IMG/VR virus record: IMGVR_UViG_3300029288_007102
Span: 32,001-96,000 of that record
Source: a virus
Taxonomy: Duplodnaviria; Caudoviricetes
Reading direction: 5' to 3' (one strand)
Length of the DNA: 64,000 nt
The stretch's first letter is position 1; each line of letters opens with the position of its first letter. Position numbers and translations under genes: made by a program. Shown in pieces: positions 1 to 28,352 of the stretch. The notes under the pieces were generated by a model. That model saw only the letters and a program-made list of their open reading frames with translations. It searched no databases and was not told the origin of the DNA.

Positions 1-2033
1 TAGGTAAACCATTTTGTATTGAGCATGATTCAGATAGTCCTGATAAAGCACGAGGGGTTATTTTAGATGCCAGTCTACATGAAGATCCTGATGATTTTTA
101 TGTAGAATGCTTGGTGGCGGTAGATAAGGTGCGGTACCCAGACATTGCTCGGAATTTGGAGTTAGGGATTCTTAATTCTGTTTCGATGGGCTGTGTGTGT
201 TCGGAAGCTGAATGTTCTATTTGTCATAATGTGGCCAGGGACACTGAGCATCTGTGCCCACATATGAATAAAGATGACCTTCGTTATGTGAAAGGTAGAT
301 CTAATGATGCGTATGAAATTAACCGGGGGATTAGTTATGTTGAGTTGTCAGGCGTAAGGAATCCTGCGTTTAACGATACAAAGATTTTTGAAGTAATGGC
401 ATCACAATTGAACGACAAACTAAAGAACGAGCTGAAGAGATATGCGAGTTCTAAACGGGAGGGGGCGGAGGAAAATATGGCAGTGGGATCTGAGAGTGTC
501 AGGGCTAGTCAGAATTCAGGTACTTCAAAGTTACGCAAATTGGTGAATAGTATTTCAGGTATTAAGGAAAAACCTGTACATGGGGATTTCGATTTAGGAG
601 AAGGGAATATTTTAAGGTCCTTTAGGGCAGCGGATAATAGGATCTTAATGCAACTGTTTAAACAAGGGCAAGCTGAAAATGTGTTTATTGAGCCTATCTA
701 TGGAGACTTATCGATAGAACAAAAGGCGAAGAAATATAAGGCGGCTCTAAATTTAGGGGGAATAGAAGGTTCTATTAAAACAGAGAAGGAAATCAAGAAG
801 GAAGTAGCGACAAAAACGAAAGAGACCTGCAAAAAAGCAGAAAAGGAGGAAGTGAATATGTTCAATTTAAGTTATGTAGAAGGTACTTCGCTGGATACCA
901 GTTATTTCCTGGCTAAAGAGGGGGATAAAGAACATAAGGTAAAAGCTAGTGAAGTTGTTCCAAAAGACATACAAGATTCGATCTTGGCGGGAAAGACTGA
1001 TACCGTCATCTCTCCAGAACAAGCTGTTGAACAGATTGTTAAGGAATGTGGTAGTACCCTGCAAGGGTTCCAGAAGTGGTCCTTGATGGAGAAGGTGAAG
1101 AATATCCGTCGGGCAAAGATGAAAAAGGTAGAGAAGAAAGAAGAGAAAAAGGAAGCGTCTGAAAAGCCAGTGGAAAAAGAAGTTGTCAAGGCGGCAGAAG
1201 ATCGGAAAGCTAAGATTAAGGCTATAATTGAGGCCGCTCGGGCTCGTAGGGCAGCCAAGGTAGCAGAGGCTCCTGTTGTAGAATCTGCCGAAACACCTAA
1301 GGTAGAGCCTGTAGAAAAAGTTGTTGAGGCTCCAGTCCAAGCTTCTGCTCTTACCCCAGAACGGAGAAAAGAGCTTGCTGCTCGGGCACATAAGAGAGCA
1401 ATCATTGCTCGGATGAAATTGAGGAAGAAAGCAAATTACATGAACATAGAAGATTCCTCAATTCGTTCAGAAGAGAAAGAAGAAAAAGGAGATCTCAATC
1501 TTCAGGGCACAGATCAAGTGGCCCAGAACGTTAAAGAGCAGAAGGTCGGTATGACTGGTCCTACTGGAAATGCGGGAGGCAAAGTAAAGGAGTATTACAA
1601 TAAGCTCGGCAGTCCAAGCGGTGGTACCCCGACACCTGGCGACAATTGGGCAATGAAGACTTCGGCTCTTGAGAAAGAGGTTGAAGATTTAAAAAAGAAA
1701 ACCGCTGCTTTAGAAGCAGAGAACACCCTGTTGACCAAGAAAGCGGCAATGAAAGAGAAGGCTGAGATGATTGATCAAATCATTTCTGGCTTGGATTTCG
1801 AGAGTGAAGAAGAGAAGAGTAAGACAATTGAAGAGTTGGCCTCTATGGATGCTGAGAAATTGCAGACCACTTTACAATTGAAGGCAAAGACTGCAAGTAA
1901 AGCTACTCCGATGCCGAAGACTGCCGGATTAGAAGCGGTCAATAATATTCCTCCTGTGTTTGCTGCTCAGGATTCACGCAGCACAGTAGATAAACTGTCG
2001 GATATTATGGAGAACGAAGTTCCGAAGATATAG
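1..2033 (+). CDS. Prohead protease fused to scaffold-like region (5'-truncated; frame is open from the window start: GKPFCIEHDSDSPDKARGVILDA...)
   Basis: Frame has no stop upstream of 111. His in IEHD and Ser in VSMGC plus ELSGVRNPAF fit herpes-like (SH clan) phage proteases. CSIC..HLCPH Zn motif; charged coiled-coil C-terminus; lies upstream of decoration and MCP genes. Confidence 0.85.
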   Translation, partial: GKPFCIEHDSDSPDKARGVILDASLHEDPDDFYVECLVAVDKVRYPDIARNLELGILNSVSMGCVCSEAECSICHNVARDTEHLCPHMNKDDLRYVKGRSNDAYEINRGISYVELSGVRNPAFNDTKIFEVMASQLNDKLKNELKRYASSKREGAEENMAVGSESVRASQNSGTSKLRKLVNSISGIKEKPVHGDFDLGEGNILRSFRAADNRILMQLFKQGQAENVFIEPIYGDLSIEQKAKKYKAALNLGGIEGSIKTEKEIKKEVATKTKETCKKAEKEEVNMFNLSYVEGTSLDTSYFLAKEGDKEHKVKASEVVPKDIQDSILAGKTDTVISPEQAVEQIVKECGSTLQGFQKWSLMEKVKNIRRAKMKKVEKKEEKKEASEKPVEKEVVKAAEDRKAKIKAIIEAARARRAAKVAEAPVVESAETPKVEPVEKVVEAPVQASALTPERRKELAARAHKRAIIARMKLRKKANYMNIEDSSIRSEEKEEKGDLNLQGTDQVAQNVKEQKVGMTGPTGNAGGKVKEYYNKLGSPSGGTPTPGDNWAMKTSALEKEVEDLKKKTAALEAENTLLTKKAAMKEKAEMIDQIISGLDFESEEEKSKTIEELASMDAEKLQTTLQLKAKTASKATPMPKTAGLEAVNNIPPVFAAQDSRSTVDKLSDIMENEVPKI

Positions 2034-4466: not shown

Positions 4467-4940
4467 ATGAACACAAGAACGAAGATCAGATTTAGAGTTT
4501 ACGACAGGGATATTGATCGTCTGGTTCTTCTATGGGATGGGCAGGGCTTGAATGAGAGACAAAAAGGCAAGGTTGAACTTGCTGTTGGAGATATTGACGG
4601 GGCGGACGAAAGGCCTCTAGTTTTCAAGACTGCTTCTGAGGGGGAGATTCAGAAATGTAATCTGCCTAAAGGATTAACTATGGCGGTTATAGATCACAAG
4701 GAGAACAATATGGACCCTAAGGAACCTTGTGGTGTTAAGTTGATCCTGGGGGCTGGCAATGAAATGATAATCGAATCTCTGCGGGTTCTCCCGGCTGGGA
4801 TGCTGCCGATGACAGAATGTGATAATAGATATAGAAACGCTCATCTATATTTATTTAACGACAAGATTAATAAATGGCAGAAGGCTTTGTGTGAAGAGGA
4901 TGAAGATGGACGGCCTCGGCTGTTAGTCTCACTTAAATAA
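4467..4940 (+). CDS. Hypothetical protein
   Basis: GGGAG RBS; compact operon spacing. Confidence 0.6.
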   Translation: MNTRTKIRFRVYDRDIDRLVLLWDGQGLNERQKGKVELAVGDIDGADERPLVFKTASEGEIQKCNLPKGLTMAVIDHKENNMDPKEPCGVKLILGAGNEMIIESLRVLPAGMLPMTECDNRYRNAHLYLFNDKINKWQKALCEEDEDGRPRLLVSLK

Positions 4941-4948
4941 GGAGCTAT

Positions 4949-5695
4949 ATGTCTACTTATATTTATTGGCAGGTTTCTAGTGCGGTGCAAACTCAGGGGT
5001 ATACTTATTGGGACAAGGCTAGGGTTTATCGGTCTCCAGCAGAAAACGATTTGTCCCAATATTCCCTGACAGATACGATAAACTCTGTTGTGGGGACTAC
5101 GTGGACTGTAAATTATACAGATGCCACTGCGGGGAATGGCACAGACAAGTTTTACATCGTTAAATATTACAACACTGCGGGTAGTATTGAAGATGTGAAT
5201 ATCCAAGTAACCCATTTCCCGTTGTCTCCCAGAGAAGCCAGGATCGTCCAGATTACGCAGCATATGATGGATCCTCGGCTTACGGTAGGTATGCAAGACT
5301 ATGATTTTCTGCAGGCGATTAATATGTCTTTGCAGATGTTTAATTCCTATCCGCCTCCGACAAGTTTTACGTGGGACAATTTGCCTTATGGGTATGAGGC
5401 GATAATTTCTATGGGTGCGATGATCTCTGCGGTTTTACAACGATTCCTTGGTGTCTCTATGCGAGACTTTAGTTATAATGATCAAGGATTGTCTTTAAAT
5501 TTAGATTTGCAGGGTAAGATGAAAGGTGCAGTGGAAGAGGTCTGGCGGCTGTATGAGCCAATGATTAAGTTATTTAAACTTGAAGAGTCTCCTTCCGGCA
5601 TAGGGCTTGGGTCATGGGCGATCCCACTGGGAGTGGGGAGGGTGAGTAGTGCTCTCATGAACGTTTTGGACCTTTATAGAAGTTACAGCTACTAG
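4949..5695 (+). CDS. Neck/head-tail adaptor protein
   Basis: FNSYPPPTSFT and DFSYNDQGLSLN motifs typical of myovirus neck proteins; Ig-like N-terminus; position after MCP. Confidence 0.65.
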   Translation: MSTYIYWQVSSAVQTQGYTYWDKARVYRSPAENDLSQYSLTDTINSVVGTTWTVNYTDATAGNGTDKFYIVKYYNTAGSIEDVNIQVTHFPLSPREARIVQITQHMMDPRLTVGMQDYDFLQAINMSLQMFNSYPPPTSFTWDNLPYGYEAIISMGAMISAVLQRFLGVSMRDFSYNDQGLSLNLDLQGKMKGAVEEVWRLYEPMIKLFKLEESPSGIGLGSWAIPLGVGRVSSALMNVLDLYRSYSY

Positions 5696-5763
5696 GACAA
5701 TTTTGTCAAGATTGACAATGTTTCTCGTCGGAGAATGAAATCATTGAATGAAGAGGAGAATAT

Positions 5764-6669
5764 ATGTCAGAGAAATGTAAGATTTGCAATTTGGTAAATG
5801 TGTCCCCGAGTCATTTGAATAAAACCCACAAGATTTCTCTTTATGAATATAGAGAAAAATATAGTCCTGATTTTGTGTGGGATACAGGCAATAAAGGGCA
5901 TACCCCCTGGAATAAAGGAAAAGCTCTTAGGGGCGACCCGAAGTATAAAAATATGGGGTATCATGGCGTTCACTCCCCTGAGCACACAGCAAAGTTAATG
6001 GCTGGTAGAGCCAAGTGGGCGGAAGAACACCCTGAAGAAGTTGCTAAATATAGCGTTGAAAAGCAACTTAAGAAGTATATGAAGAAGCATCCAGATTTCT
6101 ATGAGGTGCGTAGCAAGAACCATCCATTAGACGGAAAGAATCACCCTATGTATGGCAAGAAGCATTCAGAAGCAACCAGGGTAAAATTAAGTAAGGCGAC
6201 CACTTCTTATATGAACGCTCACCCTGAATTTGCCAAAGAGAAAGTTCGCCAGATGAATGCAGGGAATCCTCCTGGTCATCACTCTCGTGTCCTTAAAGAA
6301 TTATATAAGAATCCAGAATGGCATGATAGAGTTCTTTCTCCCCAAATGCACACTCGCAAGATGTCTTCTTATGAGCAGAGGGTATCGGATCTCATTAAGA
6401 AATACAAACTGCCTTATAAGTTTGTAGGCAACGGAGAAGTATGGATAGGCCAGAAGAACCCTGACTTTATTAACACTAATGGGGAGAAGAAGATAATTGA
6501 GGTTTATTCTGAGTATCATGTAGGTTTTTGGAAAGACAAGGATTATGAATCTAAACGGAGCAAGCTCTTTGCCAAGTATGGTTTCCAGACAATCTTTCTG
6601 ACTGAGCAAGATTTATTTGCCAGGAATTGGGAAAGTATCTGTTCCTTTAAGTTGGGGGTACAGATATGA
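5764..6669 (+). mobile_element. Free-standing homing endonuclease (C2H2-like N-terminus, NUMOD3, Vsr/DUF559-like nuclease)
   Basis: CKIC..H..TH; PWNKG; HPMYGKKHSEATRVKLS (NUMOD3); PDF...IIEVYSEYH PD-(D/E)xK-like C-terminus. Confidence 0.75.
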
Positions 6670-7142
6670 AGGAAATAAAAGCACCGGATAAGTTTGAATT
6701 CGATGGTACGACAGCGATCTTTTTGGCTGGGAGCATTGAGCAGGGGAAAGCGGTTGATTGGCAAAAAGAGATAGTTAAACTCCTTGAGGAAGCCAATGTG
6801 GAGATAACTATTCTTAATCCCCGGAGAGATAACTGGAACGCTAAGTTAGATCAAAGGAAAGATAATCCTGATTTCCGGGAACAGGTAGAATGGGAATTGG
6901 AAGCTCAGGAGAGAGCAAATCATATTCTGATGTTTTTTGATAAAGAGACTAAGTCTCCAATTACTTTATTGGAACTTGGTTTGTTCGCCAGGACAGGGAG
7001 ATTGATTGTGTGTTGTCCGGAAGGGTTCTGGCGAAAGGGGAATGTAGATATTGTTTGTGAGAAATATAATGTGGAACAGGTGGAAACGATTGAAGGGTTG
7101 GTGTTAACCCTTCTACATAAGCTAGCACAAAATAAAGTGTAA
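6666..7142 (+). CDS. Nucleoside 2-deoxyribosyltransferase-like protein
   Basis: IFLAGSIEQG..DWQ, ILNPRR, QVEWEL, SPITLLELG, CCPEGFWRKGNVD signature. Confidence 0.85.
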   Translation: MKEIKAPDKFEFDGTTAIFLAGSIEQGKAVDWQKEIVKLLEEANVEITILNPRRDNWNAKLDQRKDNPDFREQVEWELEAQERANHILMFFDKETKSPITLLELGLFARTGRLIVCCPEGFWRKGNVDIVCEKYNVEQVETIEGLVLTLLHKLAQNKV

Positions 7143-7257
7143 TTGTTCCCCGGCCTCTGTGGCATTGCCAACCTTTCTTGGCTCCTAAAAATAAAAATAA
7201 TGGAGCATTAAATGGCTTTAACCCGCCAGTGGCTGGGACTTAAAACTAAGGAGAGAT

Positions 7258-10200
7258 ATGAAATCGACTGCGAGTATGTTAGATTGGGGCAAGCAAGGGC
7301 TTGATCCTGCTGTGTTTGATGATCAGGGGAAATTAAAACCTGAACACAAAGAACATATTCTCTCCAAATTATATAAGAAGTTGGAGGATGCCGGGCTTCA
7401 GCATTATGCGGAGTGGATTGATACGATCCACATCATAGGCAGTTTAACTTCCTATCGGTATGCTAAGGCTACAGATGTAGACATCCATCCTGTTGTCAAT
7501 TTAGAAAAGTTCCTGGAAGCAGAAGAACAGGAGTTAGATTTCCAGGGAGCATCAGATCTCTTGAATGAACTTGGTAAAGAGTTGAGCCGGGAAGAGACTG
7601 AGGTGTTAGATGGGACTAATCATGAGATGGAGTATTACTTTGAAACCTATTTCTTTGAAGATGGGGAACAATTGTGGATCACTCTAGCGGAGACAACTGA
7701 GGGGGATTATGATGTTTTGACAGAGGAATGGACCAAGGATCCTCTCTTTGTGGACTACGATTGGGATGCTGACACTATTTACAGTACAGTTCTAGAAGAA
7801 GCGAAGGATTTGGCCAACGAGTTTGATGTGAATATTGGAGAGATCAAGAGGGAGCTTACTGACATAGATCTGTTAGAGCAGTCTTTGCAGTCGTTTAAGA
7901 ATCAGCCTAAGCAATCTAAATTCTTCCTAGAGAAGATTGAAGAGAAGATTGATACGATTGAGGCTGACATTTTAGAGATGGCGGATAAAGGTGAGGCGGC
8001 ACACGATGAGAGAGTGGAACAGTTTGAGGGTAATGACGAAGATCTAGCTAAAGGAGTTAAGTTTAAATATTTACAAAGGTATGGTTACATTTGGTTATAT
8101 AAACAATTAAAAAAACTATTTGAGGAAGAGACGCCACCAGAATTAACCCTTGACGAGATACCACAGGTCAAAAAAATAATAAAGGAGTTTAAGATGAGTG
8201 AAAATTTATTCCAGATTCTATCAGTGCTGAAGAAGCAGGCATCCCATTTTAAGGATGAGGCCTCTTATATTGAGAGCAGTGTTCTGAAAGAACTGGGGAT
8301 GACTCCGCCCAGTGCTGGAGTAGTGCCTGTTTTTGTCCAGGGTTCAACTGAGGGGAAGGAATTTATATCTGTGGTGGCCACTGACGGGGAGCTGAAAGGT
8401 CAACGGTTTAAGGTATCTGTGGCGGATCTACACAAATTGAGTTTTAATCTTGATGAATACTCTAACGAATATCAAGAAGCTGTCCGGGAATATTTTATGG
8501 AACATCCGGAAGCCAAGATGGATACAGTGGAGACGGCATCTGGAATTCGCCAGGCTATGTTGGGGAAGAGGGCGAAAAACGTTTTGTTGGAGAAAGAGAA
8601 AGACTTCAATACTTTTAAACAATTCTTTGTGGATGCTCAGTTGAGTGCGGTAGAAGATTGGTATACAGAGCGTTGTCCGGAAGTCTATGCTGCTGCCATA
8701 GAGCTTAAGAAGCAGGAAGAGATAGAAAGTAAACAGATTCAAGATCTGTATAAGAAAACAATCGCATCATTAAACGGGGAGACAGAGCCGCTCATTAAAG
8801 ATCTTTCGTCTTTTAACAGCGGGTCAGCTGCGGTTCCCGCCAAAAAAACTAGCAGTTTTGACTCGCAGACCTATAATTGGATTAAGGCTGTTCTAATTAA
8901 TGATGAGGCTTCTACTGACGAACAATTGGTACAGCATTTTATCAAAGAAGGTCCGATGACTAAGGAAGAAGCTGAGTGGTGGGTAGGGAAGCGGAATGAA
9001 TTTTTGGCTTGTCTCCCTCAAAATGAGCCAGACTTTGAAGAAGAATTTGAGAGAGCTTTCCCGGACGAAGAAAAGAAAGAGGCTAGCCTTACTTCGGTAG
9101 TTCAGTCTATGGAGCATGCTATTGCTGGAGGATATGCTCAGATCCCTTACGCCAAACGGCAAGGGAATTGGGAATATTATCTAGATGATAATTATATTCT
9201 GCATGTTAAATATTATGCTACAGAGGTGATTACTGCGGACTTTAATGCTAAGAAGGTGTTGAAGGTCACTACTGGTGGTTACAATTCGGTATCAACCAAA
9301 GCTGGGATCACCCGGGCATTGGCTGAACTGAAGGGGTTGGGTTATGAAGTCCCAGAGATGAAAGGGTATGAGACTGAGGCTTCTATAAATAAACAGCCCG
9401 TTAAATTGGATAGTGATGAAAATTCTGCTACAGTAAGATGTAATAATTGTGGTTGGGAAGGTGTTGAGGAAGATTTGAAATTATTTAAGGATAAAGGGGA
9501 ATTTGTAAAGGGTTGTCCTAACTGTGATCATTTAGATCATGCTTTGATGGATATAAAGCGAGAGAGTAAGTTTTTTATAAACAAACAGTCTGCCAAATTG
9601 TATAACGAAAATCCTCAAGGGGTGTTTAATTTCACTCTTGAGCTTGAAGAAGGGGAGTCTAAAGCCGAGGTGATGCGGCAACTTCAGCGGGCAAGCAAGG
9701 GGAATTTGTTTATGTCTGATGAAGATCGGGCTGGTGAAGGGAAAAGTAATGTTATAAATTTTTATGTTTATGCAAAATCTCTTGAAGAGGCGAAGAACGT
9801 TTTCTCTTCTGTTTTAGGATCTTTAGGGCAAAAAGCAAAGTTAAGCAAGCAGTCAAGTAGTATAGGTATTGACTATCAAAGTAAATTCACGACAGAGGAA
9901 GAAGATGAGATAAAGGATCATGTTTGTGAAAGAATTGCCGATGCGGTATTGGAAGGTTATAGTGAAGGGGAAATTTTTATTGAAGAACTTTCAGGTGATA
10001 AGGCCGTAAAGGGTTGGTTTAAGATTGACATAGAAGAAGATGAAAATGAAGAAGATGTAAGAAATGCTGAGGTTGCTAGATTGATCCGGAAAGGTTATTC
10101 TTCCGGATATAACCCGACTTTTGAGTGGAGTGCTAATGTGTGGGATCTGAATGAGCCAGAGGGGAAATCTAAGAAGAAGAAAGCGAAATCTGAACATAGC

Positions 10201-12186
10201 GATATAGTACAAATGATGCAGATAGACAATAATTTGTTTGTAGCTAAAGATAGAGATGGCCATGTTAAATATCAAGGCACCAGGGATGAAGTAAATAAAT
10301 GGATTGATGATAGGAAGAAGGAGAGGGGGGACTCTATGCAGAGAGAGTCTGTAAAAAAAGAGCAGGTGTTTCTCTCTTACGATGAATCGGATATTGCTGA
10401 AGCTGAGGTAGAATTTAGGATGTCTGAGCCCGGGGAGTTTGACTACATATTAGATAAAGTTGAATATGAAAAGGAAGATGGAACGACAAGTGATCTATTA
10501 ACCTTATATGACGAGGTAGGGCATGATAGCCAAAAGTTTATAGCTAAAGTTAAAGAGCTTGGCCTATGGGAAGAATTTGAGGAGAAGGTCCGGGAACAGG
10601 TTTATAAGGATACAGATTTCTTACAGTTTGCCTGGCAAGATCTGATTACAGAGTTGGACTCTGAGCTTAAAAAGCGTAGCCCTTCTGGCGTATGGTATGT
10701 CAAGGGTAGGAATATGGGCTGGCAACATCGGGAAGGAGATAAATCTTTTAAGGCTGATTCTGCAGAAGAATGGTTAAAGGCGATATTACCAAATACCGAT
10801 ACCTCCTTTGATATTTATGAACTGCCGAATAATGGCTTGAAGATGGTTGTTTTCCATCATGATGCCCCTACTGGAGAAACCTACGAGGCTTACCCAAAAG
10901 AGGCTTGTGCTATTTGTGGAGAGCCAGCGGACAAGAAAATAAAAGGCGATTGGTATTGCCAGGATTGTGCGGAGAATGAAGGTATCTGGCCTAAGGAGAA
11001 GAAGGAATCTGCCAAATTATTTACCTATAACGTTATGTTGGATGGCAAAGAAATAGATACCGTTTTCTATAAGCAGGAGCAGGATCCGGAAGAAGTTAAG
11101 AACTCTTTAATTGACCATGACGGGTATGATCCCCGGATAGTGGTTGTCCTAGAAGGAAAAAAGGAAAAGGCTTTGTGGCCTAAGAAGGCGAGATTAGACT
11201 TCCAGATAATAAAAGAAGCAACGAGGTCTTTTAAGGACATAAAAGAGTTACAGAAAGAAGTCCAAGATAATGATCTTCACCCTGGAGACTATATAAAAGT
11301 TGGCGGGGTAGAATATGTGATGGTTGAATATAGTGCGATTTCTTATAAGCGGCCTGGAGGTGGAGGTGGATCCCGGTATGTTTCTTATGCCGATTCAGAC
11401 ACTTTGACTAAAGAAATAAATATAGATTATGAAGAAAAGACAGTGAGGGAAGATGAGGCAATGATTGATTGGACGGAGAAAATTGCTCCTAAGATAAAGA
11501 AGGAGTCTGAGGTTGTCCAGGCACCACCGTTTAAGGAATGGTGGGTAGACAACAAGGTGAAGCCAGAATATAAGCAGCAGTATGAGGAGTATGCCAAACA
11601 GGAGACTGATCGGGGGGAGAAGCCGAGGAGTTATGATGAATGGGCTTCTGATTATTATGATGCGATGCTGGAGAAGTCTACAACCGCTTCGTTGATCAGA
11701 AAATCAATAAAATATAGTGAGCTGCCGGACTTTAAAGATTTTCATCCAGAGGAGTTGGAAGAAGGTTATCGGTTGATGGATATTGATTATAAAATCTGGG
11801 ATAGTTTGGGGGCATTAGGCAGCCGGGATATAACAGATTTTCCTGAAAAGAAAAATGCTTATTTAGAAGAAATACAGAAACGTTTCCCAAATAAAATTCC
11901 GGCTAAGTTTTATAAGCTTTTTGAGAATGAGAATTACCATCTTTTGAATGAGGCTTTATCTAAATTGGATCTATTTGTTCCTCATATTGATGGAATAACT
12001 TATTACCAACTTAAGGCTTCTCTAGAAAGAAAAGCTTATGTGGAGAAAGTTCCTGGGCACAAAAACTCTAAAGGTGAATTGGCCGAATGGGTTATCAAGT
12101 CTCACGAGACCGATAAGATCTTGAGTTCACATAAGACAGAAGAGGCAGCGAATCAACATCTTAAAGATATGCATGCTCATTCATAG
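7258..12186 (+). CDS. Large acidic modular (polyvalent) protein with N-terminal Pol-beta-type nucleotidyltransferase; putative internal head protein
   Basis: IIGSLTSYRYAKATDVDIH (GS..DxD); many short acidic domains separated by basic KxAS/KxS linkers; two CxxC..CxxC Zn ribbons. Confidence 0.7.
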   Translation: MKSTASMLDWGKQGLDPAVFDDQGKLKPEHKEHILSKLYKKLEDAGLQHYAEWIDTIHIIGSLTSYRYAKATDVDIHPVVNLEKFLEAEEQELDFQGASDLLNELGKELSREETEVLDGTNHEMEYYFETYFFEDGEQLWITLAETTEGDYDVLTEEWTKDPLFVDYDWDADTIYSTVLEEAKDLANEFDVNIGEIKRELTDIDLLEQSLQSFKNQPKQSKFFLEKIEEKIDTIEADILEMADKGEAAHDERVEQFEGNDEDLAKGVKFKYLQRYGYIWLYKQLKKLFEEETPPELTLDEIPQVKKIIKEFKMSENLFQILSVLKKQASHFKDEASYIESSVLKELGMTPPSAGVVPVFVQGSTEGKEFISVVATDGELKGQRFKVSVADLHKLSFNLDEYSNEYQEAVREYFMEHPEAKMDTVETASGIRQAMLGKRAKNVLLEKEKDFNTFKQFFVDAQLSAVEDWYTERCPEVYAAAIELKKQEEIESKQIQDLYKKTIASLNGETEPLIKDLSSFNSGSAAVPAKKTSSFDSQTYNWIKAVLINDEASTDEQLVQHFIKEGPMTKEEAEWWVGKRNEFLACLPQNEPDFEEEFERAFPDEEKKEASLTSVVQSMEHAIAGGYAQIPYAKRQGNWEYYLDDNYILHVKYYATEVITADFNAKKVLKVTTGGYNSVSTKAGITRALAELKGLGYEVPEMKGYETEASINKQPVKLDSDENSATVRCNNCGWEGVEEDLKLFKDKGEFVKGCPNCDHLDHALMDIKRESKFFINKQSAKLYNENPQGVFNFTLELEEGESKAEVMRQLQRASKGNLFMSDEDRAGEGKSNVINFYVYAKSLEEAKNVFSSVLGSLGQKAKLSKQSSSIGIDYQSKFTTEEEDEIKDHVCERIADAVLEGYSEGEIFIEELSGDKAVKGWFKIDIEEDENEEDVRNAEVARLIRKGYSSGYNPTFEWSANVWDLNEPEGKSKKKKAKSEHSDIVQMMQIDNNLFVAKDRDGHVKYQGTRDEVNKWIDDRKKERGDSMQRESVKKEQVFLSYDESDIAEAEVEFRMSEPGEFDYILDKVEYEKEDGTTSDLLTLYDEVGHDSQKFIAKVKELGLWEEFEEKVREQVYKDTDFLQFAWQDLITELDSELKKRSPSGVWYVKGRNMGWQHREGDKSFKADSAEEWLKAILPNTDTSFDIYELPNNGLKMVVFHHDAPTGETYEAYPKEACAICGEPADKKIKGDWYCQDCAENEGIWPKEKKESAKLFTYNVMLDGKEIDTVFYKQEQDPEEVKNSLIDHDGYDPRIVVVLEGKKEKALWPKKARLDFQIIKEATRSFKDIKELQKEVQDNDLHPGDYIKVGGVEYVMVEYSAISYKRPGGGGGSRYVSYADSDTLTKEINIDYEEKTVREDEAMIDWTEKIAPKIKKESEVVQAPPFKEWWVDNKVKPEYKQQYEEYAKQETDRGEKPRSYDEWASDYYDAMLEKSTTASLIRKSIKYSELPDFKDFHPEELEEGYRLMDIDYKIWDSLGALGSRDITDFPEKKNAYLEEIQKRFPNKIPAKFYKLFENENYHLLNEALSKLDLFVPHIDGITYYQLKASLERKAYVEKVPGHKNSKGELAEWVIKSHETDKILSSHKTEEAANQHLKDMHAHS

Positions 12187-17405: not shown

Positions 17406-18338
17406 ATGGTAGACGAGAAACCTAAAGGCAAGAAATGGCTGAAATGGCTGATTGGCGTCATTGTGGTCCTAGCTCTCATCTGGGCTGTGATGGCTATAGT
17501 AAAACCTAAACCTGTCGCAGCGGCAGAGTTGGGCGGAATTGTAAGCGTGTTCACGCAAGACAAGCAAGACTCTAATGTAACTAACGTGAAAGACAACCTG
17601 ATCAGATTAGATCTGACACAGGCGATTGACAAGAAAACCAGTTTGAAGATTGAGACTGACCTAGTTCGTGGCAAAGCAATTGTCAACGAGGGCTGGATCA
17701 ATTTGAAATTGGCTGACAAAATCAATCTAAAGGCTGGCAAGTTCTTGCTGCCAGCTGGTTATGCCTCACAACTTTCCCCGGCTGACCAAAAGCTAATAAT
17801 GCAACCGCTTTTTGGTAATGCCTACGACAGTGGTGTAGGTCTTATTGGTACAGCAGGTCCAGCGGACTATTCCGTTGCTTTGGTTAATGGTGATACCAAA
17901 AATAACACCTACGACCTTAATGGAAAAGTCTCAATGGATTTCCTGCCAGAGTACAAAGTCAATGCTGGTATTTCCTATATTTCAGGAAATGCAGGCGTAG
18001 ATAATGAAAAGTTCCAGACCATTGGCATTGGTGCAACAGCTGTGGTATCTAAAGTCGCTTTGATGGCGGAAGCCTTCCAGAGTAAAGATGTTTTGGACAT
18101 CTCTAGTAAGGATATATATATCCAGGCTAGTATGGATCTGAAGACTTGGGAACCAGTTGCTAGAATCGAAAGAGTTAATCCTAATATAGAAACTGATAAC
18201 GAGGCAGTCACTACGACTACTATAGGGGTTAATATCCCGGTTTATGCAGCGAAGTTGTCTATCAACTATGAGATGCCGAGGGAAGTTGAAGAGATCAACA
18301 ACGATCGGTTAATGGCTCAGCTATTGGTGAAGTTCTAG
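17406..18338 (+). CDS. Outer-membrane beta-barrel porin (OprO/OprP-like) with N-terminal hydrophobic signal/anchor
   Basis: AGGAGG RBS before ATG 17406; hydrophobic N-terminus; LKAGKFLLPAG motif; alternating beta strands; C-terminal Phe. Confidence 0.7.
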   Translation: MVDEKPKGKKWLKWLIGVIVVLALIWAVMAIVKPKPVAAAELGGIVSVFTQDKQDSNVTNVKDNLIRLDLTQAIDKKTSLKIETDLVRGKAIVNEGWINLKLADKINLKAGKFLLPAGYASQLSPADQKLIMQPLFGNAYDSGVGLIGTAGPADYSVALVNGDTKNNTYDLNGKVSMDFLPEYKVNAGISYISGNAGVDNEKFQTIGIGATAVVSKVALMAEAFQSKDVLDISSKDIYIQASMDLKTWEPVARIERVNPNIETDNEAVTTTTIGVNIPVYAAKLSINYEMPREVEEINNDRLMAQLLVKF

Positions 18339-18354
18339 TTCTTTGAACTAAGAT

Positions 18355-18574
18355 GAGAATAGGATTGTTGAGGGAAACACTGAGTGGTTAGTCGCCATTC
18401 TTTAGGGGGTTAGCGAGTGTGGAGAGGAAAGCCTGGACACACAAACTGATAAATCCCAGACCTAACTATCAAGGTGCAATCCGGGGCTGGAGAATCCAGA
18501 TAAGCCAAAGACTCTGAAAAGAGAAACTAGGTAAGATGACACCCAACATGATAGTAACAATCCTTTTTCTTCTC
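18355..18574 (+). ncRNA. Putative structured non-coding RNA (~220 nt), family unknown
   Basis: AGGATTGTT (18361) pairs AACAATCCT (18556); internal helices GTGTG/CACAC, CTGG/CCAG, CTCT-GAAA-AGAG; ACTATCA/TGATAGT long-range pairing. Confidence 0.5.
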
Positions 18575-18667
18575 CTTTTAAGACCTTAAATGGTTAATAA
18601 GTGAGCTTGCCCACTTTAATTGGTAAGTAAATAAAAGGCTGTGGAAACAGCTAATAGGAGGCTGCAA

Positions 18668-19546
18668 ATGTATAGAAGTGGCTATGTAGCAAGTGTACGG
18701 TGTAAGGGCAAGAATTATGAGGGGGATACGATCCGTCTGCCGTTCAATGCAGAGTACGAACTTTTTCTCAAGAACAAAACAGATAAGGATTGTGTGTGTG
18801 ACATCTATGTGGATGGCAAGAGGATTGGCAAGCATGAGTTAATCATCAGGGCTCACTCAGACTATTTACTGGAGCGGTTTATAGGTGAGAGTTTAACATC
18901 CGGTCAGAGATTTAAATTTGTTCCTTTAACAGGAGATGAAGTCTCTGACAAGAAGAATCCGGAGAATGGGATTATAGAGGCAAGGTTTTATCCGGCTAGA
19001 AATTATGACTGGCGTACAGTGAAGAAGCCGGATCCGATAGTGATAGAGAAACACATCTATCATCACGAAGATCATTATTACCATCCTCCATATTACCATC
19101 CCAGGCCTTATCAGCCATATCCAATTTGGTATTATGTTGGAGATAATCTTAATTGGAATGGGACTATTGGTAGCGGGACAACAACAAATTGTACACTTGG
19201 GCTTGACAATATAGCGAGTGGCTGTTCCCATACTTTTGATTCTAATTCTCTTAAGTTTACCAGCAGTCTTGATTCAAAAGGCGTTGGCGAGAACGTTGAA
19301 ACTAAGTTGGCTATCCAACAGGAAGAGGCCGGGGCAACAGTAGGTGGGAGTGAAAGCCGACAGGTTTTTGGGGAAGCAGATATAGATGTGGACCGTAGTA
19401 TAGTTACAGTCATCAAATTAAAGATTGTAGGTTATTCAGCTGAGGAAGATATTGAAGAATTGAAAGGTTTTTGTGGCAAATGTGGAATAAAGATTTCTTC
19501 TGAGAATGATAAGTTTTGCCGCAATTGTGGAGAAAAAATAAAATAG
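18668..19546 (+). CDS. Hypothetical protein with C-terminal zinc ribbon
   Basis: AGGAGG RBS before ATG 18668; His/Pro/Tyr-rich linker; FCGKCG..FCRNCG. Confidence 0.7.
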   Translation: MYRSGYVASVRCKGKNYEGDTIRLPFNAEYELFLKNKTDKDCVCDIYVDGKRIGKHELIIRAHSDYLLERFIGESLTSGQRFKFVPLTGDEVSDKKNPENGIIEARFYPARNYDWRTVKKPDPIVIEKHIYHHEDHYYHPPYYHPRPYQPYPIWYYVGDNLNWNGTIGSGTTTNCTLGLDNIASGCSHTFDSNSLKFTSSLDSKGVGENVETKLAIQQEEAGATVGGSESRQVFGEADIDVDRSIVTVIKLKIVGYSAEEDIEELKGFCGKCGIKISSENDKFCRNCGEKIK

Positions 19547-19562
19547 GAAAGGAGAGAGGATA

Positions 19563-19697
19563 ATGAAAATTTTAAAATGGGTAATAATTGTGGTGGTGCT
19601 TATTTTAATTGTATGGGCAATTAAGGCAAAGGTTAATTCAATAAAAGTAGCACCAGCTGTCTCAACAGGTACTGTGGCAACAGAAATAGCGAAATAG
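19563..19697 (+). CDS. 44-aa single-TM peptide (MKILKWVIIVVVLILIVWAIK...)
   Basis: Hand-translated; GAGG RBS; below the ORF-track cutoff. Confidence 0.6.
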   Translation: MKILKWVIIVVVLILIVWAIKAKVNSIKVAPAVSTGTVATEIAK

Positions 19698-19831
19698 GAA
19701 GTGGGTGGAGGTAGTGAAGCAAAAAGTCCTCCTCACTAGTTGATTAATGCAGATCTGGCTTCCACCCCTCCCTTTTAACTGAATATATTGGTGAATGAAT
19801 TTTTGATTAATTCTTTTAAGAAGAGTTATAA

Positions 19832-20866
19832 ATGCCCAATTTTCCTACAACACTAGATGACAATGCTTCGCTACATGTAGCGAAGAATAACTTATATACG
19901 ACATTATCTTCTCAACTTCTGATCGGTGAGACTACCACTATGACAGTGGCATCTACTGTAGGTTGGGACAGTTCAGGATATCTCTCTGTAGACAATGAAA
20001 TCATCTATTATGCCACCACTGATGCAACTCATTTCTTAACTTTAACCAGAGCAAGAGACAACACTTCTGCTGCACAGCATGAAGTAGGAGCAGTTGTAGA
20101 ATTAAGACCTGTGGCAATGCATCATAATGATCCCAAGGATGCTATTGTTGCTTTAGAAACAAAAGTTGGAGTGGACAGTTCTGCTGTCATTACATCTTTA
20201 GACTATCAATTGAAAAGCTCCTCATCTGTAAATCCAGGTCATTTACATGACACATTACAGAATTTGACTTTGACTGGTGGAGCAGATAGTACAGCAAAAT
20301 TGTCTGTGGTTGCATCTGATACTACTCATGTTGTTGATGTGGATGTGATAAGCAAGAAACTAAAAGTTAATAATGAGCTGGAGTTTCAAACTGACTCTAT
20401 CATATCAAATTCATCAGGAGTTTTAACTATAGGAAGTGCATCAGCACAAACCTATTTTGGTCCAGATGGTGGTGCTACAGATCATCATATCTTTTTAGAG
20501 AATGGATCTATAGCTGAGAGATATACAAATTCTGCATCTGCTGTTGCAGTAGGACAAGCTGTTTATATATTAGCAGCTGACACAGTTGCTTTAGCAAAGG
20601 CTGATGCAATAGCAACTATGCCAGCTATAGGAGTGGTTGTTGCTACTCCTACAACTACATCTTGTTTTGTTTCTAAGATTTGTAGAATTGGTGGGCTTAG
20701 CTTTGCTTCTGCAGGGTTGAATGTTTATATCTCAACTGCAACAGCTGGATCTCTGCAAACATCTGTTCCATCTGGAGCAAATGCTGTGGTTCAAAAGGTT
20801 GGGAAATCTAGGAGCACAACAGATTTAGATATCAATATAGATCAGCAGTTTTTAGTTTTACAATAA
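19832..20866 (+). CDS. Tail fibre/structural protein
   Basis: NFPTTLD, DNEIIYY..TRARDNTSAAQH, AIVALETKVG; C-terminal DUF2190-like segment. Confidence 0.65.
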   Translation: MPNFPTTLDDNASLHVAKNNLYTTLSSQLLIGETTTMTVASTVGWDSSGYLSVDNEIIYYATTDATHFLTLTRARDNTSAAQHEVGAVVELRPVAMHHNDPKDAIVALETKVGVDSSAVITSLDYQLKSSSSVNPGHLHDTLQNLTLTGGADSTAKLSVVASDTTHVVDVDVISKKLKVNNELEFQTDSIISNSSGVLTIGSASAQTYFGPDGGATDHHIFLENGSIAERYTNSASAVAVGQAVYILAADTVALAKADAIATMPAIGVVVATPTTTSCFVSKICRIGGLSFASAGLNVYISTATAGSLQTSVPSGANAVVQKVGKSRSTTDLDINIDQQFLVLQ

Positions 20867-20878
20867 GGACATCTATGT

Positions 20879-23026
20879 ATGGCAAATCAAGAGATTGATT
20901 ATATGGAATATTCTACTGATGTATTAGCTCAGGATGCATATGTATCTGATGCTGGTGGAGTAGCTACAGGTGGAACAATAACTACAGTTGATGGAGATAA
21001 AGTTCATACATTTACTTCTAGTGGAACTTTTACTCCAGCAAATTCAGGAAATGTTAGAGTTCTGGTTGTAGCTGGAGGAGGTGGTGGTGGATCTCGTATT
21101 GGTGGTGCAGGTGGAGGTGGAGGTGTCTGCTATCAAGCAGTAAGAGCAGTAACAGCTGGTACACCTTATACAGTAACAGTAGGGTCTGGTGGAGCTAGAG
21201 GAACTGGTGCAAGCTCACTGTCATCTGGCACAACAGGAAATAACTCTATTTTTGACACAATAACAGCTCTTGGCGGTGGCGGGGGTGGAGCTTATGGAGT
21301 TTCTAGTGGTAAGAATGGTGGATCAGGTGGCGGTGGCAGCTATAGCAATACAGCTGCTGGTACAAAAACTCAAGGAGACTCTGGAGGAGCTACAGGATAT
21401 GGAAATAATGGGGGAGCTGGAAACAACACATATCTTTATCAAGGAGCTGGAGGCGGTGGAGCAGGAAGTGTAGGAGAAACAGTTCATGATAGCAATGGTG
21501 GTAATGGAGGAGCAGGATATTCAAGTGATATTTCTGGCTCTGCTGTAAGTTATGGCGGTGGAGGCGGAGGATGCTCAAATTCTGGAACTCCTGGAACAGG
21601 AAATGGCGGAGGAGGTAATGGAAGTTCTGGATCCAGCAATGCTTCAGATGGAACTTCTAATACAGGCGGTGGCGGTGGAGGAGCAAGGAATATTTCAGAT
21701 TCAGGATCTGTAGTTGGTGGTAATGGAGGATCTGGAGTTGTGATAGTTAGGTACACTCCTGTTGCAGATTATCAGTGCTACAGTGAGTCCACGATAAAGA
21801 CTCAAGGATCCTATTCTTTAAGGTGTGTAGGATCAGTTTCAACTAGTTTAAATAAAACTTTAGTTAAAACACTTTCTACTCATTATAATTTAGAAAATGT
21901 TATGTCTCTGTATTTTGATCTTCGTGCTAGCAGGACAGGTGGAAATATTAAGATTGGATTACACAATGCTCAGTCATCTGGTGGAACAATAACTACATTT
22001 GACAGATATACCATTCACACCTTTACTTCTAGTGGAACTTTTGTTCCCTCGGTGTCGGGTGACATTTCTGTTCTGGTTGTAGCTGGAGGAGGTGGTGGGG
22101 GCTCTCGTATTGGAGGCGGTGGTGGTGGAGGAGGAGTCTGCTATCAAGAGTCTAGGGCTGTAGTTGGAGGGACATCTTATACAGTAACAGTAGGGTCTGG
22201 TGGTGCTGGTGGAGTCGGGAAGAGCTTGTCACCAGGAACGACAGGAAATAATTCTATTTTTGATACCATAGTCTCAAATGGCGGTGGTGGTGGAGGAGCC
22301 TATGGATATTCGAATGGAAAGAGTGGCGGATCTGGAGGTGGAGGAGTCTACAGCAATAGAACTGCTGGATCTAAAACTCAAGGAGATATTGGTGGAGCAT
22401 CAGGATATGGTAATGATGGAGGAACAGGAAATAATAGCTATTATTGTGGATCTGGTGGTGGTGGAGGAGGAAGTATAGGAGTTTCTGTTAGTGCTGATGC
22501 TGGTGGAAATGGAGGAACAGGATATTCAAGTAGTATATCAGGATCTTCTGTTTCATATGGCGGTGGTGGTGGCGGATGTGGAAATACAGCAAATGCTGGA
22601 ATAGGAAGAGGTGGCGGAGGAGATGGCTCTGTATCTGGAGCGAGTGCTTCAGATGGAACTTCTAATACAGGCGGTGGCGGTGGAGGAGCAAGGAATATTT
22701 CAGATTCAGGATCTGTAGTTGGTGGTAATGGAGGATCTGGAGTTGTGATAGTTAGGTACCTAACTAGCTCACAAGCATCATCTGATTGTGATATAGAGAT
22801 AGCTCCTAGCATTTTGGTGGCAGACTCCTTTCAAACAGTTTATTTGAATTTGTCTGCTATTAGGAATGATTTTAAAAGCAATATAGATAGAATAACTATA
22901 ACAAATATAAATGCTGATTCTGATAATACTTTTTATATAGACAATTTTTATGCTATAGCAGGAGAAGGTCCTGTTGCTCATCGTATTGCTGGAGTTAATA
23001 TTCTTGGTGAACTTAGATTTATTTAA
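20879..23026 (+). CDS. Glycine-rich fibre/receptor-binding protein with tandem duplicated domain
   Basis: Two copies of HTFTSSGTF..VLVVAGGGGGG..GGSGVVIVRY. Confidence 0.75.
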   Translation: MANQEIDYMEYSTDVLAQDAYVSDAGGVATGGTITTVDGDKVHTFTSSGTFTPANSGNVRVLVVAGGGGGGSRIGGAGGGGGVCYQAVRAVTAGTPYTVTVGSGGARGTGASSLSSGTTGNNSIFDTITALGGGGGGAYGVSSGKNGGSGGGGSYSNTAAGTKTQGDSGGATGYGNNGGAGNNTYLYQGAGGGGAGSVGETVHDSNGGNGGAGYSSDISGSAVSYGGGGGGCSNSGTPGTGNGGGGNGSSGSSNASDGTSNTGGGGGGARNISDSGSVVGGNGGSGVVIVRYTPVADYQCYSESTIKTQGSYSLRCVGSVSTSLNKTLVKTLSTHYNLENVMSLYFDLRASRTGGNIKIGLHNAQSSGGTITTFDRYTIHTFTSSGTFVPSVSGDISVLVVAGGGGGGSRIGGGGGGGGVCYQESRAVVGGTSYTVTVGSGGAGGVGKSLSPGTTGNNSIFDTIVSNGGGGGGAYGYSNGKSGGSGGGGVYSNRTAGSKTQGDIGGASGYGNDGGTGNNSYYCGSGGGGGGSIGVSVSADAGGNGGTGYSSSISGSSVSYGGGGGGCGNTANAGIGRGGGGDGSVSGASASDGTSNTGGGGGGARNISDSGSVVGGNGGSGVVIVRYLTSSQASSDCDIEIAPSILVADSFQTVYLNLSAIRNDFKSNIDRITITNINADSDNTFYIDNFYAIAGEGPVAHRIAGVNILGELRFI
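21640..22759 (+). repeat. 115-bp exact direct repeat (21640-21754 and 22645-22759)
   Basis: Identical TGCTTCAGATGG...GTTAGGTAC at an offset of 1005 bp. Confidence 0.9.
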
Positions 23027-25034: not shown

Positions 25035-25418
25035 ATGGTAAATGATCTTGATGGTTGGAGAGAAGTTATTACAAGCTCGATTAAATCACTGCAAAAAACA
25101 GCAGAAGATTTGAAAACTTCTGTTATCATTTCTCAAGGAAATATTGACAAAGCATTTTCGAAATTATCAGACTGTCAGCAATCTCGTTCTGTTTACAGAG
25201 AAGGCATAGAAGAAATACTAAAGGAGCAGAAAGAGATCAATAAGAAATTTAATGATCAAATAAATGGTCGTGAAGGTCTTTTTGTTTTTATGGAAAAGCT
25301 TAGTCAATCAGTGATAGATTTAAAAGACACAGTTGATACTTATGTAAAATCTACATTTTTTAGTCTCATGGCTGCAGGAGTTTTAGGGATAGTTGGTAAA
25401 TATTTCAAATGGTGGTAA
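25035..25418 (+). CDS. Coiled-coil protein with C-terminal TM (holin/XhlA-like)
   Basis: Heptad pattern followed by FFSLMAAGVLGIVG. Confidence 0.5.
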   Translation: MVNDLDGWREVITSSIKSLQKTAEDLKTSVIISQGNIDKAFSKLSDCQQSRSVYREGIEEILKEQKEINKKFNDQINGREGLFVFMEKLSQSVIDLKDTVDTYVKSTFFSLMAAGVLGIVGKYFKWW

Positions 25419-25421
25419 GAG

Positions 25422-26336
25422 ATGGGAAGATATAATCAGAGTTTGACTCCTTATAACAAGGTCCCATCTGAATATAATTATTCAGAGAACACTTATAGCA
25501 AATCTCTTAGTGATAGCATAAGCATCACTGACAATTTTACTGATTTGGTGAGTTATTCCAGGACCCTTACAGATAATGTAGTGATTACTGATTCCCTGTC
25601 TAAAATAGCCGATTTTGTAAGACTGGTAGCAGATTCAGTAAGCATTACAGATAGTTTAATAGATACAGCTGACTATATTAGAGCAACAGCAGATGTAGTA
25701 GGTATTACAGATAATCTGGCTAGAATTGTCGGTTATGTAGTAACAATCGCCGATCATGTGGCGATAAACGATTTCCTCTCAACTGGGGAAATATACATGA
25801 AGTCGGTTTCTGACATAGTAGGGATGACAGATTCTTTAACAAAGACGGTTAATTCGGCAAGGACCATTGCTGATATTGAGGTAATATCTGATACTGTTTC
25901 CAGGGTAGCAAATGCCTTAAGGGCTATCTCGGACAATGTGGCTCTAAGTGATTTCCTCTCAACTGGCGAAATATATCTGAAGTCTGTCTCTGATACTGTT
26001 GGAATTACAGACAATTTGGATAGGACAGTTTCCTATGTTAGATTGATTGCTGATAGTATGGGAATGACAGATGACTTGGCAAGAGTAGTCGGCTACATAG
26101 TTTTCTTATCTGAAAATGTAGGAATAACAGATAATTTATCTTATGGCCAAGGATTTTACAGGGGAATATCTGATACAGTTGGAATGACTGACAATGTAAC
26201 AAAAGCATACCAAGCAATAAGGATAATTCAGGATCAAATGGGGTTATCTGATGCTATTGTGTACCAGTTTATTTCAGGAGTGCAAAGAAGAATATATCTT
26301 ATGGGAGATGACATCTTTATCAGAAGGAGATTCTAA
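25422..26336 (+). CDS. Repeat-containing fibre-like structural protein
   Basis: Many ~19-20-aa SD.VGITD.L repeats. Confidence 0.65.
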   Translation: MGRYNQSLTPYNKVPSEYNYSENTYSKSLSDSISITDNFTDLVSYSRTLTDNVVITDSLSKIADFVRLVADSVSITDSLIDTADYIRATADVVGITDNLARIVGYVVTIADHVAINDFLSTGEIYMKSVSDIVGMTDSLTKTVNSARTIADIEVISDTVSRVANALRAISDNVALSDFLSTGEIYLKSVSDTVGITDNLDRTVSYVRLIADSMGMTDDLARVVGYIVFLSENVGITDNLSYGQGFYRGISDTVGMTDNVTKAYQAIRIIQDQMGLSDAIVYQFISGVQRRIYLMGDDIFIRRRF

Positions 26337-27144: not shown

Positions 27145-27161
27145 TAGATAAATAGGAATAA

Positions 27162-27193: not shown

Positions 27194-27227
27194 AAGAAGC
27201 TAATCTTATAAAGCAAGAGGTTTAACT

Positions 27228-28334: not shown

Positions 28335-28352
28335 ATTTAAGGGAGGTTTTGT

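Follow-up and report, generated by a model that had tools for sequence, protein, structure and literature searches.

The stretch of DNA analysed here (the window) comprises 64,000 nt, bases 32001–96000 of the metagenomic IMG/VR virus record IMGVR_UViG_3300029288_007102 (183,208 bp, estimated to be 87% complete). All of its long open reading frames (ORFs) lie on the + strand, and the order of portal, protease, capsid, sheath and baseplate genes identifies the phage as a large myovirus (~183 kb). The nearest relative of its capsid protein is that of Bacillus phage G (32% identity), with a weaker resemblance to those of cluster C mycobacteriophages. Within the head–tail block, flanked by all of the genes just named, is a giant ORF that is probably expressed late and encodes a protein of 1642 amino acids (aa), P0001. 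A preliminary description had drawn the same ORF at 7258–12186, and proposed that its product is a cargo polyprotein divided into modules by short basic motifs. The architecture of P0001 is described below, together with the evidence bearing on whether it may be cut within the phage head.

P0001 is very acidic, as had been recognised (net charge −116; 12.7% E, 10.5% K), and consists of ~15 modules: an N-terminal Pol-beta-type nucleotidyltransferase (NTase) followed by ~14 small domains that fold, and move between proteins, independently of one another. The linkers that join them are short, disordered and basic, with the pattern (h)-x-[K/R]-[K/Q/E/T]-[A/S]-[S/A], where h is a hydrophobic residue, and all of the motif strings listed previously were found in their places (Table 1). 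The two Zn ribbons that had been predicted are also present, the second with cysteines C1217...C1240. A Pfam scan of P0001 returned DUF6510 alone (E 0.004) and an NCBIfam scan returned none; the Pfam, PHROG and NCBIfam scans of P0001 and of its stand-alone homologues yielded no usable module function, phrog_6353 (function unassigned) being the sole match. Domain B, with its HHDAPTGE motif, could be placed in no Pfam family and resembled no known fold clearly. The model of residues 955–1642 gave nothing usable when compared with PDB (Foldseek), with the ESM Atlas by shape, or by a wide VIA-align search (best Z 5.8), and an Atlas search by features gave no usable module function.

The AlphaFold (AF2) model of residues 955–1642 was built from 20 sequences and is deep for domain B alone; module borders in residues 320–954 come from homology only. 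Confident domains, with a predicted local distance difference test (pLDDT) value of ~90, were found at 983–1029, 1037–1244 and 1593–1642, with domains of moderate confidence elsewhere. Values below 50–60 were seen at 955–980, 1029–1032, 1245–1254, 1300–1323, 1391–1428, 1471–1484 and 1576–1590. These seven segments coincide with KKKAKS, QRES, KKESA, KKAR/KEAT, KKES, TTASLIRKS and KASLERKA, so that seven of the seven motifs listed for this part of the chain lie in low-pLDDT linkers, as the preliminary description required of them. With an unbiased [KR][KR] pattern, seven of nine matches in 955–1642 fall in linkers, the two outside being KKRSPS (1138) and KKNAY (1531). The first of these sits within a well-folded domain and is probably not a junction; nor, probably, is KRAK (residue 437), which the close homologue P0002 does not retain.

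Comparison of [KR]x[AS] motifs with a composition-matched background, the check suggested earlier, gave a divided result. The loose form is not enriched in P0001 (34 against 27.8 ± 4.5 in shuffled sequences, P 0.11), but tighter, ordered forms are: [KR][KRQ]x[AS] occurs 12 times where 4.8 are expected (P 0.002), [KR][KRQ]x[AS][AS] five times against 0.6 (equalled in 0 of 5000 shuffles), and K[EQKT][AS][AST] seven times against 1.2. Patterns of reversed order are at or below expectation (0–5). Composition alone was rejected as the cause of the motif, reversed and permuted orders being unenriched. The same preference was seen among the 57 family members that reach 900 aa or more, with 135 KEA (39 expected), 68 KQA (16 expected) and 90 ASL (24 expected), while K[EQKT]A[ST] was found 96 times compared to 6–37 across seven permuted orders. 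The linker motif occurs ahead of unrelated domain families. At the DNA level the junctions differ, with Ala encoded by GCA, GCT or GCG and Ser by TCN or AGY, and the signal therefore lies in the protein and not in the DNA. A recombination site, hairpin or palindrome at the junctions was rejected on the same ground.

The modules of P0001 are mobile, and their borders are marked by the motif. Among 5.8 billion clustered proteins the sole near-full-length homologue is P0002 (1609 aa), from a related metagenomic phage with the same gene order. The two are 64–85% identical where alignable, yet whole modules differ: P0002 has an extra module of ~87 aa after KKTIAS and another before KEASL, it is missing residues 710–860, which hold Zn ribbon 1 and the module after it, as well as 980–1032, and it carries unrelated sequence in place of residues 1256–1310. 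Each of these breaks coincides with a basic motif, and at the junctions near residues 606, 864 and 1309 the motif accompanies the downstream module even where the preceding module differs. An exhaustive phmmer search with residues 1–1200 recovered 831 library proteins, most of them matching residues 1–315 alone. Others matched single modules (606–707, 775–866, 863–963 and 1030–1200), either as stand-alone proteins of 110–310 aa or at other positions in other large proteins; the stand-alone copies of 863–963 terminate at ...ANVW, as P0001 does right before its KKKKAKS linker. The earlier view of the segments as independent domains is borne out by these homologues, which cover four modules (the last over 1030–1215), and by the domains resolved in the AF2 model. 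Both stand-alone homologues and a shuffled order, which had been named as things to look for, were found, modules being gained, lost and swapped at the motifs. No homologue was detected by tblastn of P0001 against INPHARED phages, by a word-based search for shorter homologues, or by a viral-contig scan with the N-domain, and no P0001-module paralogue was found among the small leader-bearing proteins described below or elsewhere in the genome.

Sixty homologues align over ~315 residues of the N-domain. Six positions never vary (D9, D73, D75, H122, W158 and Y277) and three, G61, S62 and E125, scarcely do; the hG[GS] (G61-S62) and DxD (D73-x-D75) signatures are thus invariant or at least 90% conserved, and the catalytic residues are intact. 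The N-domain was modelled by AF2 with a pLDDT of 90.3, and its leading Foldseek matches in PDB were all Pol-beta-type NTases (spectinomycin adenylyltransferase AAD(9), CdnE, CdnC/D and poly(A) polymerase), with no subfamily prominent. The matches are weak (best E 8e-4, template modelling score ~0.2), in part an effect of the long helical arm. One homologue gave a weak Pfam NTP_transf_2 match (E 9.5e-4). From the conserved residues, the fold model and the Foldseek matches, the Pol-beta assignment made in the preliminary description stands at the superfamily level. With its 831 library hits the NTase-led family is widespread, the ~310 aa domain heading giant proteins. It occurs as a stand-alone protein (~300 aa), at the front of giants of 1000–3973 aa, or behind other domains, namely LigD 3′-phosphoesterase, ATP-dependent ligase with LigD PrimPol, NUDIX, or 2H/Acb1-like phosphoesterase; relatives of the giant also carry a low-molecular-weight phosphatase (LMWPc), which, like 2H/Acb1, NUDIX and LigD phosphoesterase, is a domain of counter-defence type. 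These fusion partners suggest an action on nucleic-acid ends or nucleotide signals, and the 2H (anti-CBASS-like), NUDIX, LigD phosphoesterase, ligase and PrimPol domains of the relatives are likely to be counter-defence or nucleic-acid repair tools. The motif precedes the N-domain both internally and at the extreme N-terminus (MKKQSS or MNKLSS before VLDY, and MKSTAS before MLDW in P0001).

A related motif is found in the head proteins. The 758 aa product of the protease gene has a protease domain at ~48–235 (EHD...ARGVILDA...SVSMGC) with a K/E/A-rich tail behind it; two Dickeya jumbo phages, JA29 and AD1, have homologues with the annotation head maturation protease, and gp19 of phage G is 41% identical. 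It carries FKREAS at residue 17 and LKRYAS at 226, immediately after the protease domain, as well as KKEAS at 464, which is without the hydrophobic P5 residue; the tighter patterns pick out four or five sites in the whole protease-scaffold protein, which is thus itself enriched (5 where 1.05 would be expected, P 0.003). In the capsid protein, FTKQAS (28–33) closes an N-terminal extension, the conserved core beginning at ~40 as judged from the NCBIfam model and from the phage G capsid protein, which has no extension. Across 26 capsid homologues (38–83% identity) the N-terminal 35–60 residues vary freely in length and sequence, except for one fixed island, h-[STK]-[KR]-x-A-[SAG], in which the Ala is at least 90% conserved (for example GFKKEAS, GVSRTAS, PFTKKAS, NFKREAG, QLSRTAA, ALLKKAY and KFVKEAS).

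The head module is common to 24 related loci, and portal islands were seen in these 17–27 residues ahead of the conserved RVPLLY core (FKRKAA, FTREAA, FKRTAS, FSRKAS and LTKTAA, with LVKQAQ in this phage). The 488 aa protein p488 is conserved across related head modules and its orthologues carry IKKEAG, LKKDAT, FKKIAA or FNKQAG, with Ser or Gly sometimes replacing Ala; orthologues of the protease have the same island at the N-terminus in less regular form. In this genome, the first 15 residues of the 632 aa protein and p488 contain MRKVAG/IYKEAG and IKKEAG, respectively. The motif falls within the first 30 residues of the 632 aa protein, p488, portal, protease and capsid protein, and deeper in five further head-block proteins; these ten proteins account for 15 of the 61 matches in the genome (57,700 residues). 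A conserved island ending the hypervariable extensions of several head proteins, as seen here across ~25 related phages, is the signature of prohead-protease sites, and we infer that the h-x-[KR]-x-A islands may be cleaved by that enzyme. The linker motif of P0001 resembles the island motif, in part only.

The best single explanation, though one that we regard as evenly poised between right and wrong, is that P0001, a polyvalent phage protein, is a polyprotein packaged in the head and cut at some of its linkers. It is the likeness of the linker motif to the islands of capsid protein, portal, p488 and protease that makes packaging and cutting the most likely mechanism. P0001 would enter the prohead and be cut there by the prohead protease of the phage itself, i.e., the 758 aa protease-scaffold protein. 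The likeliest cuts would be at canonical sites near residues 328, 1311–1322 and 1594, perhaps with others at weaker K-K-x-S sites, and the pieces would be ejected with the DNA and act on the host. A wider proposition is that, throughout a lineage that includes phage G, h-x-K/R-x-A(S) both directs proteins to the inside of the capsid and shows where they are to be cut, at the end of the propeptides of capsid protein, portal and protease, as the 7-residue leader (M-x-W-x-K-x-A) of ~17 small early-region proteins and between the modules of giants; this is tentative and, on balance, unlikely. If true, one protease would free a whole, fast-shuffled library of injected effectors, from single genes or from polyproteins.

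Several points weigh against cutting of P0001 in the head. The strict pattern h-x-[KR]-x-A occurs in it at chance level, five times against 3.7 expected (P 0.31), at LKKQA 324, LGKRA 435, WPKKA 1307, IIKEA 1317 and LERKA 1589, four of which are at module borders. Most linkers are of a looser K-K-x-S/A kind, in which the hydrophobic position is missing (as in the EKKEAS, AKKTSS, EKKESA and KKKKAKS junctions) or Ser stands for Ala. Admitting Ser in place of Ala raises the number to 14 (7.2 expected, P 0.015), with 10 of these at borders. Read cautiously, the sequence offers three or four good sites, which follow the NTase, lie at ~1310–1320 and precede the last domain, and ~10 weaker ones. The motif also caps stand-alone N-domain proteins, where a cut would shed only ~6 residues. 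The giants of the related loci L008, L009 and L013 have the same linker motif, and the protease and capsid protein of the present phage gave no tblastn match there; in a 26 kb stretch of L008 the only protease recognised is of ClpP type. Of the 24 related head modules, 23 have no giant with a P0001-type N-domain close to the capsid gene, and the giant is therefore an accessory, shuffled element rather than a core head gene. By profile and fold searches, the modules beyond the NTase have no recognisable function and none has an assigned effector role. Finally, the AF2 model outside domain B draws on two sequences only.

In the main rival reading P0001 is an uncleaved, beads-on-a-string polyvalent protein and the K-K-x-A/S motifs are inherited cassette leaders (M-x-K-K-x-S-S, M-x-W-x-K-K-A) that now act as flexible linkers and are maintained by frequent cassette exchange. 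We consider this unlikely on balance. It fits the movement of the motif with the downstream module, the motif at the start of stand-alone N-domain proteins, the Met kept in junctions (SMGKKSS and SSMGKKA in P0002, SMQRES in P0001), the M-x-W-x-K-x-A start of ~17 small proteins in the same genome, and the lack of enrichment of the strict head-protein motif in P0001. It leaves unexplained why a related motif lies inside capsid and portal extensions, 20–60 residues in, in ~25 phages, and why the residue order is kept across giants with 30–40% identity and different modules. Should the motif instead be an uncut binding motif, for capsid targeting or scaffold docking, it would hold head proteins and cargo alike at the protease-scaffold core, and its presence in head proteins, in the scaffold and between modules would be accounted for, as would the small-protein leaders at the extreme N-terminus. 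The capsid-targeting sequences of T4 are likewise short N-terminal peptides. Such a role without cutting is improbable, since the targeting peptides of T4 and phiKZ-type phages are cleaved too (PMC10052503) and the position of the motif, right after the protease domain and along the scaffold, better fits self-processing and scaffold removal.

Processing by another protease is more improbable still, whether by a host enzyme after ejection or by a trypsin-like neighbour of the related giants that would cut after Lys. Trypsin_2-type genes are found directly upstream of the giants in L008 (9077–9982) and L009 (4018–4791; also L010), the motif is common to phages in which no protease of the present type was found in the stretch examined, and processing of polyvalent proteins after injection was predicted by Iyer et al. 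(2017; PMC5512222). However, the trypsin-like proteins are probably exported, because of their signal- or lipoprotein-like N-termini, and there is no such gene in this genome or beside the giants of L011–L013. The trypsin-like neighbour was rejected as the processing enzyme on these grounds, being confined to L008 and L009/L010. A ClpP-type protease was also searched for in this genome and none was found. Least probable is that P0001 acts whole, as a structural virion part (tape measure) or as a large acidic DNA mimic. Its size, its position in the structural block and its net charge of −116 would suit such a role; its enzyme domain with intact catalytic residues, a module content that differs between close relatives, and the lack of a giant at the equivalent place in 23 of the 24 head modules compared would not. 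It also lies 18 kb upstream of the sheath gene and is made of small, mixed alpha/beta domains of variable content, and its model has no long coiled-coil or hydrophobic segments like those of tape measures.

The reading of P0001 as a packaged and cut polyprotein may be compared with known systems, of which the closest working analogy is the T4 capsid-targeting sequence with its cleavage by gp21, together with the S/A/G-x-E sites of phiKZ and SPN3US. T4 internal proteins and Alt, like the proteins considered here, have a short leader or linker motif in common with the capsid protein. This T4 cargo probably leaves the head together with the DNA and acts against host defence. In T4 the last residue of the motif is Glu (L/I-x-E), whereas the motif of the P0001 phage is basic-x-Ala/Ser, and each T4 cargo protein is small, is made separately and has a single N-terminal site, whereas P0001 would have up to ~14 sites in one chain. 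Short cleavage motifs of head proteins are known in T4 and in phiKZ/SPN3US, and in phiKZ, 201phi2-1 and SPN3US the head is matured by gp175/gp245 proteases at S/A/G-x-E (PMC10052503). In these giant-phage heads, as is proposed here, a short motif marks the trimming site of many proteins. A single propeptide can be cut more than once, and the protease is distantly related to the present one (T4 gp21-like fold). Their motif is not that of the present phage and, except for self-cleavage of the protease, all of the cleavages identified in SPN3US remove N-terminal propeptides and do not separate folded modules, unlike the cutting proposed for P0001 (PMC10052503).

A second comparison is with the polyvalent proteins of Iyer, Burroughs, Anantharaman and Aravind (2017; PMC5512222). 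These proteins, like P0001, combine many unrelated small domains in one polypeptide, are encoded by phages beside packaging or virion genes and shuffle their domains rapidly, and they include the 2H phosphoesterase and nucleotide- or nucleic-acid-directed domains that are also seen in relatives of P0001. They are predicted to be packaged and possibly processed. With ~15 modules P0001 is within the range of such proteins (2–15 or more globular domains), and its gene is in a portal/virion context. None of their signature domains (MuF, ArdC-N, zincin peptidase, ART and the large polyvalent protein-associated, LPD, families) was detected in it nor, in contrast to the collection, a methylase domain; its Pfam scan gave no LPD domain, and there is a weak Atlas lead to LPD18 (score 0.75). 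Its leading domain is a ~310 aa unit of NTase and helical parts, compared with the minimal NTase described there, and the passages of PMC5512222 that were searched contain no conserved inter-domain motif shared with capsid or portal propeptides. P1 DdrB/DarB and the N4 virion RNA polymerase are very large accessory proteins that travel in the head and from there enter the cell, as P0001 would, and DdrB is processed before packaging (PMC5512222). Their domains are unrelated to those of P0001, with one processing event each or none.

If the linkers are cut, P0001 would be a polyprotein of a tailed phage, in which one late gene gives rise to a dozen or more separate injected proteins, from a module set that varies even between close relatives. 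A limited literature search found no phage polyprotein cut by a prohead protease. If they are not cut, P0001 is an ordinary, though large, polyvalent protein. For a large, little-studied group of big myoviruses the work supplies a specific candidate cleavage motif, and since the cultured phage G carries matching strings, it is directly testable by mass spectrometry.

Table 1. Positions of P0001, its modules and linkers, and the surrounding genes. Positions are in window coordinates unless another locus is named; residues are those of P0001.
Feature	Residues	Position	Strand	Remarks
632 aa and 488 aa (p488) proteins, unannotated		G000 25265–28613 (L006:8265–11613)		Upstream of portal
Portal		−3364 to −1703		Upstream of window
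Prohead protease with K/E/A-rich scaffold-like tail, 758 aa		−243 to 2033	+	Starts 243 nt before window
Decoration-like protein, 155 aa		2114–2581		Corresponds to the ORF ahead of the capsid gene at related loci; the counterpart by position in phage G, gp26, is annotated as capsid decoration
Major capsid protein, HK97-fold, 316 aa		2660–3610	+	phrog_2522; NCBIfam capsid_Caudo_2
Three small head-tail proteins				Conserved; between capsid protein and accessory genes
Accessory pair 5′ of giant: NUMOD3-type endonuclease-like (301 aa) and nucleoside 2-deoxyribosyltransferase-like (158 aa)		5764–7142		Pfam labels taken from orthologues in L002, a close relative
Giant ORF P0001, 1642 aa and stop		7258–12186	+	
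N-terminal leader MKSTAS	1–6	7258–7275	+	pLDDT <50; family consensus M-x-K-x-[AS]-S before [IVM]LD[YW]
Pol-beta-type NTase and long helical domain	7–320	7276–8217	+	
Junction LKKQASH	323–329	8224–8244	+	Canonical h-x-K-x-A-S after NTase; homologue alignments stop at ~310–330
Junctions KKTIAS and KKTSS	499; 529	8752–8856	+	Extra ~87 aa module between them in P0002
Junction EEKKEAS	604–610	9067–9087	+	Module inserted just before KEASL in P0002; 606–707 matches begin here
Module ending ETEAS	611–709	9088–9384	+	Stand-alone or relocated homologues P0081, P0098
Zn ribbon 1 (C728, C731, C753, C756)		9439–9525	+	DUF6510, E 0.004; module missing from P0002
Junction DIKRES...INKQSAK	764–779	9547–9594	+	P0126 match begins at 775
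Junction LSKQSSS	861–867	9838–9858	+	K-[QK]-S-S retained in P0002 despite different upstream module
Domain A	868–965	9859–10152	+	Stand-alone homologues of 111–137 aa with same ...ANVW end
Linker with KKKKAKS	966–982	10153–10203	+	pLDDT <50
Mini-domain, three strands and helix	983–1026	10204–10335	+	pLDDT ~90; missing from P0002
Linker SMQRESVKKE	1027–1036	10336–10365	+	pLDDT drops to ~50
Domain B (HHDAPTGE) and Zn ribbon 2	1037–1244	10366–10989	+	18 homologues, several stand-alone; pLDDT >90
Linker PKEKKESAK	1245–1253	10990–11016	+	Block pLDDT 59; following module replaced in P0002
Module phrog_6353	1254–1299	11017–11154	+	Recurs inside further large proteins (L008, L009)
Linker with WPKKAR and IIKEAT	1300–1323	11155–11226	+	pLDDT <50
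Linker PKIKKESEV	1411–1419	11488–11514	+	Within low-pLDDT stretch 1391–1428
Linker KSTTASLIRKSIKY	1471–1484	11668–11709	+	pLDDT <50
Linker ...KASLERKAY	1576–1594	11983–12039	+	Canonical L-E-R-K-A-Y; pLDDT <50
C-terminal small domain PGHKNSKGE	1595–1642	12040–12183	+	pLDDT 87–94
311 aa protein immediately 3′ of P0001		12193–13128	+	N-terminal phrog_4496 domain, acidic C-terminal part
Two-glycosyltransferase-domain protein, 778 aa		14977–17313		3′ of P0001 after other unknown proteins; in structural block
Tail sheath		30429–31994		
Baseplate wedge		38601–40040		

Strings of the same kind occur in other proteins of this genome and in phage G. The 311 aa protein downstream of P0001 has GKTASLEG and MKKMAD between its phrog_4496 domain and its acidic C-terminal part. 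About 17 small ORFs upstream of the window, at G000 4484–11300 (L007), begin with M-x-W-x-K-x-A (MNWVKKA, MGWVKKA, MSWIKKA), and their leaders match h-x-K-x-A exactly (WVKKA, WIKTA, WLREA); further M-x-W leaders are at G000 22035, 23111 and 30487. In phage G (L014, 9307–38131), gp19 has LVKTAA and VVKIAP right before the protease core and the portal protein gp14 has MAKQAA near its N-terminus, while gp20 begins MSKKISRLKKTA; these are islands of the same kind in a cultured phage.

Large multi-module proteins accompany the NTase family at other loci. In L015/L016 the NTase is a separate protein of 453 aa, beginning MKWLDKQSS before ILDY, and a 2100 aa multi-module ORF near the head genes (L015:16820–20954, equivalent to L016:16796–20914) begins MNFNLIGLIKQAS. 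Its junctions include KASLNKKAY and AWLKKAA, with repeated KASL-x-K-K-A-Y and AWL-x-KKA, and the first of these repeats is the string of the last linker of P0001. Other large proteins (1026–1205 aa) lie beside the related giants at L008:3968–7048 and 17838–21455, L009:14458–17616 and L013:16107–19496, and contain K-E/K/T-A-T/G junction strings, Zn ribbons and the phrog_6353 module.

In the close relative L002, the 778 aa glycosyltransferase protein is 94% conserved. The capsid gene of that relative (L002:4578–6446) is seemingly interrupted: residues 1–160 are 96% identical and are followed by ORFs of 227 and 165 aa, a break that could represent an intron, an intein or an endonuclease insertion.

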